DNA from: an uncultured Gammaproteobacteria bacterium
GTDB taxonomy: Bacteria; Patescibacteriota; Patescibacteriia; Buchananbacterales; UBA6539
Assembly: GCA_964535715.1 (NCBI GenBank)
Contig: CAZHUO010000002.1
Coordinates: 16,916-80,915, forward strand
Direction of reading: 5' to 3'
DNA: 64,000 nucleotides
Shown here piece after piece: positions 3,347-16,222 of this stretch. Positions within the stretch are counted from its first letter, which is position 1. Every line of letters begins with the position of its first letter. Made by a program: the position numbers and the translations under genes. Under the pieces are notes generated by a model, which saw only the letters and a program-made list of their open reading frames with translations, made no database searches and was not told the origin of the DNA.

Positions 3347-3760
3347 ATGCGAGTACGAGCGATTATAATTAAGGACAATAAAATAATCCTGATTAAAAGA
3401 GTAAGACCTAATGAAACATATTGGGTTTTTCCCGGTGGCGGTGTTGATTCTGGCGAAACAAAAGAAAATGCCCTAGCTAGAGAAATTAAGGAAGAATTGG
3501 GTTTGGATATTGAAGTAAAAGAATTATTTCTAAAAAGGCAATCAGATAAACCGGGAATGGAAGGTATAATGGAATACTTTTTTTCGGCAGATATTATCGG
3601 TGGTGAGCTCGGCAGTGGCGATGGTCCGGAATACCAGAGTGGTACTAATTATGAAGGTAATTACAAAATTGATTTAATTGACATTGGTGATTTAGACCAA
3701 ATCAATTTAAAACCAAAAGAAGCTAAGGATTTGGTTCTAAAATTATCTAGTCAAAAATGA
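3347..3760 (+). CDS. NUDIX hydrolase
   Basis: Nudix box GGGVDSGETKENALAREIKEELGL. Confidence 0.85.
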   Translation: MRVRAIIIKDNKIILIKRVRPNETYWVFPGGGVDSGETKENALAREIKEELGLDIEVKELFLKRQSDKPGMEGIMEYFFSADIIGGELGSGDGPEYQSGTNYEGNYKIDLIDIGDLDQINLKPKEAKDLVLKLSSQK

Positions 3761-4386
3761 AAAGAATTATTTTAACATCCCACGGATTCGAAAAAAATAA
3801 GAAATTAAAGCAGCAACTTCTTGGATTACTGCCATCTTTGACTAAAAATTTATCCGTTGTTATTATAACAACCGCTTCAGCCGAATGGAAGGAAAAAAAT
3901 AAACATGCCGTTTCCGCTAAACAAGCGTTGGAAAATATGGGATTTAAAAAGGTAGCTTTTCTGGACGTAGAATTTGAAAGTCCAAATAAGCTAAAGGATT
4001 TTAATTTAATTTATATTTGTGGTGGAAATCCATTTTATCTTTTATATCACCTTAAGAAAAGCGGAGCTGACAAAGTAATTCAGAAGCTAGCAGACAAGGG
4101 AGTTATCTTAGTTGGTGTTAGCGCTGGTGCTGTAGTATTAGGCCCAAGTATCAAAGTCGCTCAATATTTTGATGATGAGAAAAATATTGTTAAGTTAAAA
4201 AATTTTTCTGCCTTGAAACTAACTGACATTATAATTTTACCTCATTATAAAATAGAATACGAAAATAAAGTAAAAGATTTTGAAAAAGAAAATCATTGTC
4301 AGGTTACTCGTCTAAAAGATAGCCAAGGCGTTACGGTAATTGAAGATAAAATTAAGCCCATTGATTTCGGCGGCCGCAAACCGTAA
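3757..4386 (+). CDS. Peptidase S51 (dipeptidase E-like)
   Basis: ICGGNPFYLLYHL and VGVSAGAVVLG, the S51 nucleophile context. ATGA start/stop overlap with the preceding gene. Confidence 0.75.
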   Translation: MKRIILTSHGFEKNKKLKQQLLGLLPSLTKNLSVVIITTASAEWKEKNKHAVSAKQALENMGFKKVAFLDVEFESPNKLKDFNLIYICGGNPFYLLYHLKKSGADKVIQKLADKGVILVGVSAGAVVLGPSIKVAQYFDDEKNIVKLKNFSALKLTDIIILPHYKIEYENKVKDFEKENHCQVTRLKDSQGVTVIEDKIKPIDFGGRKP

Positions 4387-4419
4387 TTTGCGGTACAAGT
4401 AGCCTACTTTCAGTATCAG

Positions 4420-4738
4420 AATAATGGAATTGGATCAAATACTAATTACTCAGACTTAAAAACAGGACACACCAGTGTCCGATTTTTGGGACAGCACAAT
4501 ATCCCTGTCCCGTGTCCGATTTGTCCAATTTTGTAGAATTAGGCCTGACCGAGATGCCTCAAACTCGCCTCTAGTAAATACTCTAAATAACCCTTATAAT
4601 GCTTGTAAAGTTTCGGTTCTAGACCGAGGTACACTGCCAGAAAATCGCCGAAGAGGCGTTTTTTTGCCTGTCCGCCTCTCTGGCTCGCCATTCGGTGGCT
4701 TGCGGGGTATAATGTAACTAATAATTAATTCCATTATT
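4420..4738. repeat. IR-bounded GC-rich non-coding island (candidate ncRNA, regulatory array or MITE-like insert)
   Basis: A perfect 12-bp inverted repeat, AATAATGGAATT (4420-4431) / AATTCCATTATT (4727-4738), encloses palindromes GGACAC-acca-GTGTCC (4465-4480) and GGGACAG-N10-CTGTCCC (4488-4511), direct repeats GTGTCCGATTT (4475-4485, 4512-4522) and a terminator. Confidence 0.45.
4641..4665 (+). terminator. Intrinsic terminator inside the non-coding island
   Basis: aaaatCGCC-gaaga-GGCG followed by seven T (4659-4665). The stem is short (4 GC pairs). Confidence 0.45.
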
Positions 4739-4754
4739 TTTAACCAATATCATT

Positions 4755-5090
4755 ATGCAATTTCTAATCAATTGGCTAATCTATACTTTAGCCATTATCA
4801 TTACCGCCTATTTGCTGCCGGGCGCAACGATTGAAAGCCTTTTTGCCGCATTTGTTTTGGCTTTGGTTTTGGGGTTGATTAACGCGGTTTTAAAGCCGAT
4901 AATAATTATTTTGACTTTGCCGATTAATATTTTAACCCTGGGACTTTTGACATTGGTGATTAACGCCTTACTGGTGATGCTGGCCGATTTTATTGTGCCG
5001 GGTTTTTCCGTTGGCAGTTTTTGGTGGGCGCTTTTATTCAGCATCATTTTGTCAATTATCAATCTGGTGTTAAGCCGGATTAAAGAGTAA
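4755..5090 (+). CDS. Phage holin family IV / DUF360 (YvlD-like) membrane protein
   Basis: 111 aa, about four TM segments, LGLINAVLKPIIIILTLPINILTLGLLTLVINAL pattern typical of this family. Confidence 0.7.
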   Translation: MQFLINWLIYTLAIIITAYLLPGATIESLFAAFVLALVLGLINAVLKPIIIILTLPINILTLGLLTLVINALLVMLADFIVPGFSVGSFWWALLFSIILSIINLVLSRIKE

Positions 5091-5267: not shown

Positions 5268-5366
5268 ACCCCGCACTAATTTTATAATCAATTTTATAAA
5301 TATATCTTTTAATTATAATTATTTAATAATAAATGTATGACTCAAAACACTAAATTAGTGCGGGGT
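5268..5366. repeat. 15-bp perfect GC-rich inverted repeat bracketing the start codon of ORF 5337
   Basis: ACCCCGCACTAATTT (5268-5282) / AAATTAGTGCGGGGT (5352-5366), 69-nt AT-rich spacer. It shares the 12-mer CCCCGCACTAAT with 15634-15645. Confidence 0.8.
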
Positions 5367-5663
5367 CAACATAGCGCAACAATTGATGACGTTTTAGAGG
5401 CAGTCAATATTTTTGCCGACGAAACTCATCAGGAGTTTAGTCATGTCAAAGGCGAGATATCGGAGATTAATAGTAACATAACAAGAATGGTTACCAAAGA
5501 TTACCTGGATGACAAGATGTCGGATTTAAGAGGCGATTTAGTAGTGATGATGAGAAAAGAAGATAATAAGCTAAAAACTCTGGTCGGTGTATTAAAAGAA
5601 AAGTCAGTTTTAGATAGCAGTGATGTCAGCCGGATATATTCAATGGAGCCTTTTGCTCAATAA
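5337..5663 (+). CDS. Hypothetical protein (coiled-coil-like)
   Basis: 108-aa ORF with a promoter upstream and a terminator downstream. No family recognised. Confidence 0.55.
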   Translation: MTQNTKLVRGQHSATIDDVLEAVNIFADETHQEFSHVKGEISEINSNITRMVTKDYLDDKMSDLRGDLVVMMRKEDNKLKTLVGVLKEKSVLDSSDVSRIYSMEPFAQ

Positions 5664-5822: not shown

Positions 5823-6845
5823 ATGGATTTAGATAGAATAAATGAAATACTAAAATCATATCAGTTTTTTCGGCGCAAGCAGGTTGATGAAGCGATTTTT
5901 AATCGCTTGGCTTCTAATTGGTCTGAAGTTTCCAACTTGCCCAAAGATCTGATTGAAATTCTTCAAAATGAATGCCCTTTGGAAATCAAAGCGAAAACCT
6001 TTGAAACCAAAGACAAAAAAACCGTAAAAGCTGCAATTATATTGTCAGACAATAAGGAAATCGAAACTGTTTTAATGCGTCATAAAGACAATCGCAATAC
6101 GGTCTGCGTATCTTGCCAGGTCGGCTGCGCTTTAAACTGCGCTTTTTGCGCAACCGGCCAGCAGGGCTTTTGCCGAGATCTGACATCTTCGGAAATTATT
6201 TTGCAGGTTTTATATTTTGCCCGCTTTTTAAAAAAAGAAAACGCCAAAATTACCAATGTTGTTTTTATGGGCATGGGCGAGCCGTTTTTGAATTATGATA
6301 ATGTAATGAAGGCGATTTATTGGCTGAATGACAAAGATAAATTTAATTTAGGAAGCCGCCAAATTTCCATTTCAACTTCAGGAATTATTGAAGGCATAAA
6401 TAAGCTTGCCAAAGAGCCATTGCAGGTAAATTTGGCTTTTTCATTTCATGCTGTTGATAACGATTTACGAACCAAGCTTATGCCGATTAACCAAACTAAT
6501 TCCTTGAGTAAAGTATTGGAGGCAATCGGCAATTATATTGAGAAAACAAATCGGCGGGTAATGATTGAATATCTAATGCTTGAAAATATTAATGATTCAG
6601 AAAATTCGGCTCTTGACTTGGCCAAGCTTTTAAAGAAAAAACTGCATCGACTTTTTTTTGTCAATTTGATCAGTTACAATGCGACTGAAAAATTTCAGCC
6701 TTCAAACCCGGAAACAATAAAAAAATTCAAAAGCATTTTGGAAAAAGAGGGAATTGTTGTGGTTCAAAGATATCGCTTCGGAACAGATATTAAAGCCGCC
6801 TGCGGCCAGCTGGCTTTAAATAGAGTAAAATTAAAAGACAAATAA
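5823..6845 (+). CDS. rlmN: 23S rRNA/tRNA (adenine-C2)-methyltransferase RlmN (radical SAM)
   Basis: CQVGCALNCAFCATGQQGF, GMGEPFLNYDNV, C-terminal ACGQL. Confidence 0.9.
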   Translation: MDLDRINEILKSYQFFRRKQVDEAIFNRLASNWSEVSNLPKDLIEILQNECPLEIKAKTFETKDKKTVKAAIILSDNKEIETVLMRHKDNRNTVCVSCQVGCALNCAFCATGQQGFCRDLTSSEIILQVLYFARFLKKENAKITNVVFMGMGEPFLNYDNVMKAIYWLNDKDKFNLGSRQISISTSGIIEGINKLAKEPLQVNLAFSFHAVDNDLRTKLMPINQTNSLSKVLEAIGNYIEKTNRRVMIEYLMLENINDSENSALDLAKLLKKKLHRLFFVNLISYNATEKFQPSNPETIKKFKSILEKEGIVVVQRYRFGTDIKAACGQLALNRVKLKDK

Positions 6846-15236: not shown

Positions 15237-15585
15237 GGCGACGTAGGGCGAGAGTCCCGCACCTATTTTACTCATCAATCATTTTCAAGATTAATTTTTT
15301 CTACAGTATAAAATAAATTATTTAACCTAAACAGTGATCAGTAAAATAGGTGCGGGATCTAGTTAAGCCGCTACGACGCAGGTTTAATTAATGAATCTTA
15401 TCGTGAAAAGGGAGCCATCAAAGGGTGAAATACCCGAAAGCGCTCCGTCGCCAAAGCGGTACTTATCCAGTTTTGACGCGTCAACGACTTGTCCCGATTA
15501 ATCCTTCGCCTTTGGCGGAGTGAAAAATCTTAGATCCCGTCTTATTCATATCTAATTATAAAGCGGGACTCCGTGGTTAATACCC
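15237..15585. mobile_element. 349-bp GC-rich structured non-coding insertion with a 6-bp TTTATT target duplication (MITE-like / mobile ncRNA candidate)
   Basis: The string ATAATGTAATTTATTAAATATATT-TGG is contiguous at 16122-16148. Here it is split after TTTATT (15231-15236) and resumes with TTTATT (15586-15591). Subterminal IR GAGTCCCGC / GCGGGACTC. An 18-bp stem at 15255-15272 / 15340-15357. Confidence 0.5.
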
Positions 15586-15790: not shown

Positions 15791-15847
15791 TCGGGCTGGG
15801 GAGATTCGAACTCCCGACCTCATCGTCCCGAACGATGCGCGCTAGCC
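15791..15847 (-). pseudogene. tRNA-Pro 3' fragment (D-loop to acceptor, no CCA)
   Basis: 57 of 57 identical to 16149-16205 of the intact tRNA. It diverges on both sides. Confidence 0.8.
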
Positions 15848-16123
15848 CCCGCCAGAGGCGGGTCGGCCTTTGGCGGAAGCTGCTCTAATAATTATATTAC
15901 GAACTTGTCTTCCAAATCCACTTTTGTAAAATTTTTCTCTCATAATAGCATCCTGTTCGCATAAGTATTTTTCAAAATATAATAATATTAGATGACCATT
16001 CTCACGTGTCCATTTGTTCGATTTCTGATTATGTTGTTTTAATCTGTCTTCTGGATTAATTTTTGAGTAACCGACGTATATCTTTCCATTTTTTATACTT
16101 TTTAAAAAATATACATAAAACAT
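15842..16123 (-). CDS. GIY-YIG nuclease family protein
   Basis: MFYVYFLKSIKNGKIYVGYS...RLKQHN...REKFYKS. The stop TAG (15842-15844) lies inside the tRNA fragment. The GC-hairpin-encoded tail is AASAKGRPASGGG. Confidence 0.75.
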   Translation of the reverse strand: MFYVYFLKSIKNGKIYVGYSKINPEDRLKQHNQKSNKWTRENGHLILLYFEKYLCEQDAIMREKFYKSGFGRQVRNIIIRAASAKGRPASGGG

Positions 16124-16145: not shown

Positions 16146-16222
16146 TGGTCGGGCTGGGGAGATTCGAACTCCCGACCTCATCGTCCCGAACGATGCGCGC
16201 TAGCCAGCTGCGCTACAGCCCG
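16146..16222 (-). tRNA. tRNA-Pro (anticodon CGG), CCA encoded
   Basis: CGGGCTG-TA-GCGC-AGCTGGCTA-GCGC-G-CATCG-TTCGGGA-CGATG-AGGTC-GGGAG-TTCGAAT-CTCCC-CAGCCCG-A-CCA folds as a canonical 77-nt cloverleaf. Confidence 0.9.

Follow-up and report, generated by a model that had tools for sequence, protein, structure and literature searches.

Within a 64-kb stretch of contig CAZHUO010000002.1 (hereafter the window, meaning that whole stretch at its full length), we describe an intergenic element, located between a gene for an S51 peptidase and a gene for a PF04020 four-helix membrane protein, that we read as a stand-alone gene for a structured small RNA (sRNA) of about 195 nt, encoded on the + strand at 4471-4665 in a Patescibacteria-like genome. 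To this reading, which is drawn from sequence comparisons, we assign a probability of roughly 0.55. The element is part of a segment that a preliminary description of the same DNA had singled out as a GC-rich non-coding island, bounded by 12-bp inverted repeats and densely filled with GGACA/TGTCC half-sites. This island is most likely composite, comprising the candidate sRNA gene with its terminator, followed by the promoter and 5' untranslated region of the PF04020 gene (4666-4738); the real unit is delimited only through comparison with a second genome. The half-site array, in turn, reads better as the DNA image of two RNA stems, P1 and P2, together with two 11-nt strand copies that flank P2.

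A sharply bounded unit in unrelated gene contexts

The homologue that delimits the unit lies on contig CAZINP010000006.1 (L012, also L154) and was met in a scan of 185,579 species-representative genomes. Positions 4474-4644 of the window align with positions 5873-6043 of L012 over 172 nt at 83.7% identity (blastn, pairwise E 7e-48), and the alignment has sharp edges and a single identical block of 34 nt. The flanks are unrelated: S51 peptidase and PF04020 genes border the window unit, and the L012 unit comes after a YceG/MltG gene and before a convergent AP-endonuclease-type gene. When 15.8 kb of the L012 contig was compared with the 64-kb window by tblastx, the element was the sole shared sequence. 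The L012 contig has a GC content of 37% and sits in a metagenome-assembled genome labelled as uncultured Gammaproteobacteria. Since all named relatives of its YceG protein are Patescibacteria/Parcubacteria proteins, this contig was probably mis-binned, and both hosts of the element are probably Patescibacteria; the genome of the window, like that of L012, appears to be Patescibacteria-like.

A third locus, L144, has coding DNA about 84% identical to that of L012. The spacer after its YceG gene, syntenic with that of L012, holds a collinear, strongly diverged copy of the 3' half only (nhmmer E 2.7e-4 in a search within that spacer), in which the blocks CCTGAC, CTCAAAGTC, TGGTAAATCG, CAAAAGACCCC and GGTTCCAGACCG are kept in order. 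The same locus also carries a near-perfect CIRCE, TTAGCACTT-N9-GAGTGCTAA, the operator of HrcA; it lies about 290-320 nt past the YceG stop at 3604, where it directly follows the terminator of the diverged copy and precedes the next gene.

Beyond these loci, the element was not found with YceG relatives of 73%, 67% and 63% identity, nor, where sequence is visible, with the closest PF04020 orthologues (90%, 84%, 81% and 73% identity). In its place, a 57-nt AT-rich spacer precedes the orthologues at 81% identity, and those at 84% and 90% identity are preceded by unrelated sequence (79-101 nt visible). Within this lineage, the spacer ahead of the PF04020 gene seems to be variable. One instance of it, at L002 1-101 upstream of the 90%-identical orthologue, contains an unrelated GC-rich palindrome, CCACGTCGTTCGC...GCGAACGACGTGG, with 13-bp arms.

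The searches for further copies, which the preliminary description had suggested, returned none elsewhere in the window by blastn-short, nhmmer or a covariance model, R1, which scores 210.7 bits on the window unit and 214.6 bits on L012/L154; nor did model R1 detect a second copy in the 15.8-kb stretch of the L012 contig or a further member at any other locus searched with it. The scan of the 185,579 species genomes recovered one window-type locus, and that of the JGI metagenomes none. Exact probes from the conserved 3' domain, including one of 22 nt from its most conserved block, had 0 matches in IMG/VR and 0 in the JGI metagenomes, and blastn against phage and plasmid collections gave nothing significant. 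Two Logan assemblies (L001, L143) contain the island sequence itself without a single difference.

Predicted fold, termination and competing readings

The alignment of the window and L012 units supports a consensus structure on the + strand with 47 pairs, in which all 94 of the 94 cells are standard pairs; the eight one-sided changes are all to G·U, and there are four double changes. When the structure is mirrored on the - strand, 12 of 94 cells are broken and 87.2% stay paired, and RNAalifold yields -41.05 kcal/mol for the + strand versus -33.25 kcal/mol for the - strand. Folded separately, the two homologues (fold z-scores of -2.2 and -2.9) share the same closing helix, P2 and P5, with P3 appearing in the L012 fold only. 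The closing helix is predicted in both of these minimum-energy folds and again in the consensus fold of the trimmed alignment.

The clearest case among the individual helices (Table 1) is P3, which in the window reads GUCCAAUU...AAUUAGGC and in L012, at the same place, GUCUUUUUU-CUCC-AAAAAAGAC. The first pair of the closing helix changes from C-G to U·G in L012. P1 takes the form GGGCAU/GUGUCC in L012, with two G·U pairs, and thus pairs on the + strand only; sequence conservation starts only at about 4472, inside P1, and the 5' arm of this hairpin may lie upstream of the predicted transcription start. The 3' strand of P4 overlaps a CGCCUCU segment at 4566-4572. The stretch 4590-4612 is strictly conserved and predicted to be largely unpaired, and of the most conserved block L144 keeps GGUUCCAGACCG, where a change of C to U gives U·G.

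An intrinsic terminator is predicted just 3' of the unit at all three loci (window, L012 and L144), each time in unrelated sequence. With just 4 pairs in its G+C stem, the 4646-4665 hairpin was missed by a simple terminator scan of the window; RNAfold predicts it, lengthened by A-U pairs. The AGAGGCG of this terminator (4652-4658) can alternatively pair with the CGCCUCU at 4566-4572. By inspection, L012 has an equivalent in GACUCU (5967-5972) with AGAGUC (6090-6095), which involves a C-G to A-U double change; a clear equivalent was not seen in L144. By our rough estimate the chance of such a match is about 1-2%, and the pairing suggests some competition of CGCCUCU with the terminator stem.

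Control through just such competition would be expected of a cis-acting RNA, be it an attenuator or riboswitch of the PF04020 gene or a structured 3' untranslated region of the upstream gene, and the preliminary description had counted an attenuator among its candidates. The element is co-oriented with both neighbours and lies 90 nt upstream of the PF04020 start, and L012, whose terminator is otherwise unrelated, has a counterpart of the anti-terminator-like pairing, so that this part of the idea, some terminator competition, may be real. Most of it does not hold, however, and we regard a cis-acting element as very improbable. The next gene is convergent in L012, and the unit that follows in L144 comes with a CIRCE operator and promoter of its own; the upstream genes differ as well, and no riboswitch in Rfam is matched. 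A promoter-like site, TCGCCA-17-TATAAT, falls between the terminator and the PF04020 gene, within the island and outside the RNA, and from about 4680 on the window resembles, by eye, the upstream region of the 84%-identical PF04020 orthologue in L168. Because the downstream gene is not conserved, the promoter-like site intervenes and the 81%-identical orthologues have the AT-rich spacer, the unit is, on these comparisons, no conserved leader of the PF04020 gene, and a riboswitch or attenuator defined by gene association was rejected.

Several observations weigh against the interpretation as an sRNA gene. Shuffle controls equalled the observed pairing values in 26 of 500 cases, and the strand comparison is biased because the tested structure had been derived from the same two sequences on the + strand; with two full-length homologues and one partial one, covariation is anecdotal. 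No convincing sigma-70-type promoter was found upstream of the window unit (upstream of the L012 unit, TTGAAA-17-TATACG can be read by eye). The conserved unit does not include the terminators, and a family this rare would be unusual among housekeeping RNAs. Finally, the element has diverged between the close relatives L012 and L144 far more than between L012 and the window, and this pattern fits horizontal movement of a DNA module equally well as it fits a constrained RNA.

Such a module, small and non-autonomous in the manner of miniature inverted-repeat transposable elements (MITEs) or PATE-like elements, is the main rival, if an unlikely one. It would have moved horizontally and landed between a stop codon and a terminator, its hairpins being recognition structures in DNA or single-stranded DNA, its ends the short CAGTGT and ACACTG, and the RNA a by-product of read-through. 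It stays alive because the L012 copy is nearer to that of the window than to that of L144 and because the terminators are outside the conserved unit. It would account for a sharp-edged unit between a stop codon and an unrelated terminator in both genomes, for 84% identity between genomes that share nothing else in the available sequence, for the missing 5' half at the same locus in L144, and for the short terminal inverted repeat CAGTGT...ACACTG. Small intergenic repeat elements include the Correia and ERIC types as well as MITE-like ones, and the window unit resembles them in its size of about 170 nt, its high degree of structure, its sharp edges and its position between a stop codon and a terminator. 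It differs from them in being single-copy where this can be checked, both in the 64-kb window and in the 15.8 kb of L012, in having a terminal inverted repeat of 6 bp, and in the G·U type of its stem changes. Moreover, one window-type locus in the species-genome scan and none in the JGI metagenomes is little for a mobile module; a target-site duplication was not seen, by reading, at either candidate boundary, and no transposase gene was seen among the ORFs scanned (see below). Because the one-sided changes yield G·U pairs on just one of the strands, they suggest selection on RNA as opposed to duplex DNA. The MITE-like insert proposed in the preliminary description, with its single copy in the window, its chance-level inverted repeat and no visible target-site duplication, is not supported, and a MITE recognized by its terminal repeats was likewise rejected, the ends of the conserved unit having only a 6-bp complement.

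The sequence features listed in the preliminary description were all located, by direct reading and repeat search, at the positions it had given. These include GGACAC-acca-GTGTCC and GGGACAG-N10-CTGTCCC (P1 and P2 in Table 1), the two direct repeats GTGTCCGATTT, which extend to 14 nt as CC[A/C]GTGTCCGATTT, the word CGCCTCT at 4566-4572 and again at 4672-4678, and the terminator hairpin CGCC-GAAGA-GGCG followed by T7 at 4646-4665. The open reading frame (ORF) at 4475-4717 exists and, as had been supposed, looks non-coding, with no Pfam match and no coding-type substitution pattern. The island is indeed GC-rich relative to its surroundings (local GC of 0.44-0.49 versus 0.22-0.36 in adjacent spacers); overall it is no outlier, the conserved 174 nt, with a GC of 0.437, being at the 89th percentile of all 174-nt windows in the 64-kb stretch. 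The bounding 12-bp inverted repeats are perfect and correctly placed, but as boundaries they fail, since they are at chance level and outside the conserved unit. The window contains 32 perfect 12-mer inverted-repeat pairs at 50-500 nt spacing, versus about 11 in first-order Markov simulations, and the bounding pair is a minimal single 12-mer, which with up to one mismatch occurs 5 times versus 3.2 expected. The arms have no counterpart in L012, and the stretch of the right arm looks alignable, by eye, with the region upstream of the orthologous gene in L168; the repeat straddles the sRNA gene and the 5' region of the next gene by chance. The eye-catching features, namely the bounding repeat and the half-site array, thus misled. 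Among the interpretations that had been offered, the structured sRNA is the one that gains support, from the sharp edges of conservation, the unrelated gene contexts, the pairing on the + strand and the terminator at each homologue.

Table 1. Coordinates of the candidate sRNA gene, its predicted structural parts and the features around it (window positions)
Feature	Position	Strand	Basis or remark
S51 peptidase gene	3757-4386	+	upstream neighbour of the island
Left arm of 12-bp inverted repeat, AATAATGGAATT	4420-4431	.	judged incidental
Hairpin P1, GGACAC-ACCA-GUGUCC	4465-4480	+	competes with the closing helix for 4475-4478
Conserved core of candidate sRNA	4474-4644	+	blastn vs L012; likely transcript ~4471-4665
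Repeat R1, GTGTCCGATTT	4475-4485	+	first bases form the 5' strand of the closing helix; identical in L012
Hairpin P2, GGGACAG-N10-CUGUCCC, 7 bp	4488-4511	+	kept in L012; closing G-C becomes G·U
Repeat R2, GTGTCCGATTT	4512-4522	+	between P2 and P3; identical in L012
Variable hairpin P3	4523-4544	+	L012 sequence differs, still a hairpin; two double changes
Hairpin P4, CGAG...CUCG	4550-4567	+	G-C becomes U·G on both sides in L012
Most conserved block, AACCCUUAUAAUGCUUGUAAAGUUUCGGUUCUAGACCGAGG	4590-4629	+	34 nt identical to L012
Hairpin P5, UCGGU-UCUAG-ACCGA	4613-4627	+	within the most conserved block
3' strand of closing helix, ACACUG	4631-4636	+	pairs with CAGUGU 4473-4478
Intrinsic terminator, AAAAUCGCC-GAAGA-GGCG-U7	4641-4665	+	direct reading, RNAfold
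Promoter-like site for PF04020 gene, TCGCCA-17-TATAAT	4685-4713	+	promoter scan, 10/12 matches
Right arm, perfect reverse complement of AATAATGGAATT	4727-4738	.	in the 5' untranslated region of the PF04020 gene; judged incidental
PF04020 four-helix membrane-protein gene	4755-5090	+	downstream neighbour of the island

Known families and recurrences of the 11-mer

The preliminary description had held that a match to a known RNA family, or a lack of conservation and of additional copies, would speak against its observation. A homologue was found, as described above, and no known family was matched: Rfam 15 (4227 models, covering among others 6S, SRP, RNase P, tmRNA, riboswitches, HEARO and IS605-associated RNAs) recovered, at gathering thresholds, two tRNAs only in the whole window. 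With E up to 10 over 4250-4900, the best scores were 14.9-16.7 bits versus thresholds of 41-50, and neither L012 nor L144 gave an Rfam match. ARAGORN found no tmRNA in the window, and its only call there was a tRNA-Pro at 16146-16222. The other tRNA, a weak Rfam match on the - strand at 15791-15861 (30.6 bits versus a threshold of 29) that has no ARAGORN call, could be a divergent or degenerate tRNA.

A protein-coding interpretation was rejected: most frames are interrupted by stops, Pfam has no match to the 80-aa ORF, and the substitutions relative to L012 are not biased to synonymous ones in any frame. A chimeric six-frame peptide query against 5.8 billion proteins likewise matched no called ORF, and in the literature the motif string matched primer sequences only. 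Several named systems were considered with the aid of a domain scan of the window proteins, which covered 35 ORFs (531-46686) and among these detected no transposase, Rep/replication, Par/partition, reverse transcriptase, Cas or Nop-domain genes. A retron was rejected, the flanking inverted repeats being at chance and no reverse transcriptase domain being present in the ORFs scanned; so were a TIGR-Tas system, with two repeats only and no Nop-domain match among those ORFs, and an IS110 bridge RNA, with no recombinase gene among them.

The pattern GTGTCCGATTT-N20-45-GTGTCCGATTT was scanned in viral, species-representative genome and JGI metagenome sets, which contained 4, 41 and 92 such loci, respectively. 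L012 is the only true homologue among them, its similarity to the window running far past the two repeats. The remaining loci include repeats of GTGTCCGATTT within the replication-initiator genes of phages (L006, L007) and next to a phage primase gene (L009), and a multi-copy element (L118) with 23-bp terminal repeats that contain the motif and with an IstA-like transposase gene. As controls, two shuffled 11-mers of equal composition matched at 6 and 7 viral loci, versus 4 for GTGTCCGATTT itself. Because these controls gave as many, the matches in phage origins and IS21 ends are background local repeats, and we rejected them as evidence for iterons or transposon ends.

This bears directly on the reading of the half-sites as a protein-binding DNA array, in which they would be operators, iterons or transposase sites, possibly controlling a TATAAT at 4595-4600 and a short transcript. 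The dense palindromic arrangement, the strict conservation of that TATAAT in L012 and the 11-mer repeats at phage initiator and primase genes and at IS21-family ends can all be cited for it. Nevertheless, such an array is distinctly unlikely, as the shuffled 11-mers did as well, there are just two direct copies, Rep, Par, IstA or similar genes were not seen among the ORFs scanned, and the -35 region of the conserved TATAAT has 3/6 matches and drew no call from the promoter scan. In L012, GGGCAT in place of GGACAC and CTGTCCT in place of CTGTCCC break the palindromy of the DNA and keep the pairing of the RNA. The iteron- or centromere-like array of the preliminary description, with only two direct repeats and no Rep or Par gene among those ORFs, is accordingly not supported; an iteron origin or centromere was also rejected on its neighbours, which are housekeeping or metabolic genes.

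The likeness to IS21-family ends is that loci between L052 and L134, and L118 beside its IstA-like gene, carry GTGTCCGATTT in units of about 23 bp. In contrast, the window shares the 11-mer alone, at background frequency, IstA/IstB were not seen among the ORFs scanned, its two copies are 37 nt apart and flank a hairpin instead of forming tandem 23-bp units at a terminus, and its conservation with L012 runs 120 nt beyond the expected terminus. As an observation in its own right, this IS21-family element is very abundant in freshwater-sediment metagenomes, and its end consists of 3-5 tandem units of about 23 bp, (G/C)TGTCCGATTTGAATCGGAAT.., finishing in ...GCCCCGGAATACGCA at the junction with variable flanks and almost always about 55 nt from a contig end. 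The loci concerned are L052, L053, L056, L063, L070, L078, L085, L089, L092, L094, L095, L110-L113, L119, L126, L130 and L134, with L064, L086 and L118 as variants; the IstA-like gene adjacent to L118 combines helix-turn-helix, rve and Mu-transposase C-terminal domains.

Two further groups of short elements surfaced in the scan. In Acidobacteriota (L010, L032, L035, L046, L084), multi-copy intergenic elements contain two GTGTCCGATTT with a hairpin between the copies, and in Akkermansia/Verrucomicrobiales (L016, L031, L034, L036, L037, L045, L047) two GTGTCCGATTT have the hairpin upstream of the first. These elements (about 75 nt aligned, about 130 nt by eye) occur in varied gene contexts, often at contig ends; they share only the 11-mer with the window element and are not homologous to it.

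With respect to known RNA systems, sRNAs of the CsrB/RsmZ type sequester proteins by means of repeated recognition motifs (GGA). The predicted window RNA would be comparable in having two identical short motifs around a stable hairpin and a terminator at its end; its motif, however, is the 11-mer GUGUCCGAUUU, in two copies and not GGA, and the likeness would be architectural only. TIGR arrays and their tigRNAs are found in candidate phyla radiation (CPR) bacteria and their phages as long, regular dual-repeat arrays with a 36-nt unit by a Nop-domain Tas gene (PMC12045711). They share the host group with the window, and the spacing of about 37 nt of the window repeats recalls the 36-nt tigRNA unit, but the window has two repeats, no Nop-domain (Tas) gene among the ORFs scanned, and a conserved 3' domain without a TIGR counterpart. 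A close comparison is with the orphan structured non-coding RNA motifs from GC-rich intergenic regions (GC-IGR) of AT-rich bacteria (GC-IGR/DIMPL; PMC6429828, PMC8632094, PMC8723152). Like these, the window unit is a spacer of raised G+C with several conserved hairpins, invariant unpaired stretches and a terminator; unlike the published motifs, which have many representatives, it is known from two to three loci and matches none of the 4227 Rfam 15 models. The element is hence a candidate for a new, very rare orphan structured sRNA of a familiar kind, that of the GC-rich spacer in an AT-rich genome.

Genomic setting, proposed mechanism and significance

The window, with an overall GC of 0.35, comes from a low-GC organism and is an unremarkable piece of chromosome. 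Its genes include those for radical-SAM enzymes, a GNAT acetyltransferase, a NUDIX hydrolase, the S51 peptidase, HU, pyruvate:ferredoxin oxidoreductase, UppS, MgsA, type IV pilus components, an ECF sigma factor and numerous glycosyltransferases; the island and both of its neighbour genes are all on the + strand. Elsewhere in the window, two intergenic long-range inverted repeats at 5268-5366 and 15255-15357 are built on one common motif, with arms of 15-18 bp (ACCCCGCACTAATTT...AAATTAGTGCGGGGT and TCCCGCACCTATTTTACT...AGTAAAATAGGTGCGGGA) and about 65-70 nt of AT-rich sequence between them; the first spans the start codon of ORF 5337-5663. The motif CCGCACNWATTT, with up to one mismatch, occurs 9 times versus 3.3 expected, a count that 0 of 100 shuffles reach, and these repeats may be a second small repeated element or an operator family. 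Among the YceG/MltG homologues, one that is 63% identical to that of L012 lies in a phage-like block (L152/L153, CAZQUN010000006.1, 1-21128) together with ParB-methyltransferase genes and genes for a GpA-type terminase, an SU10-type major capsid protein and adaptor, and an amidase; a Patescibacteria phage or prophage may carry this lytic transglycosylase.

Returning to the sRNA gene that we favour, its RNA would begin a few bases before the first GUGUCCGAUUU and end at the terminator at 4646-4665. A 6-bp helix of 4473-4478 with 4631-4636 would close a multi-branch core made up of P2, P3, P4, P5 and the conserved unpaired stretch at 4590-4612. The folded RNA would act in trans and not as a leader, a step in which our mechanistic confidence is low. 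The two GUGUCCGAUUU strands, symmetric around P2, and the invariant block at 4590-4612 could form a recognition surface for a protein, perhaps a dimer, or for another RNA, and the internal CGCCUCU, in competing with the terminator stem, could tune termination or 3'-end formation. Because there are only 2-3 homologues, both structure and mechanism are provisional.

A bolder proposal is that the 172-nt unit represents an undescribed, complex-folded RNA class of a narrow Patescibacteria lineage, whose invariant junction and pseudo-symmetric pair of GUGUCCGAUUU strands would constitute a ligand- or protein-binding core. We consider this to be quite a long shot; if true, the RNA would sense in trans in the manner of a riboswitch, act as a ribozyme, or be a horizontally mobile RNA gene cassette that inserts between stop codons and terminators.

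The impact of the finding is modest unless more members or expression data appear, because the family is very rare; the covariance model R1 can be used by others in searches for such members. Patescibacteria (CPR) have tiny genomes, and our literature searches turned up no account that treats their small RNAs, other than the housekeeping ones, systematically. An RNA that is conserved, forms several hairpins and keeps an invariant unpaired core would be among the few lineage-specific regulatory RNAs proposed for Patescibacteria.

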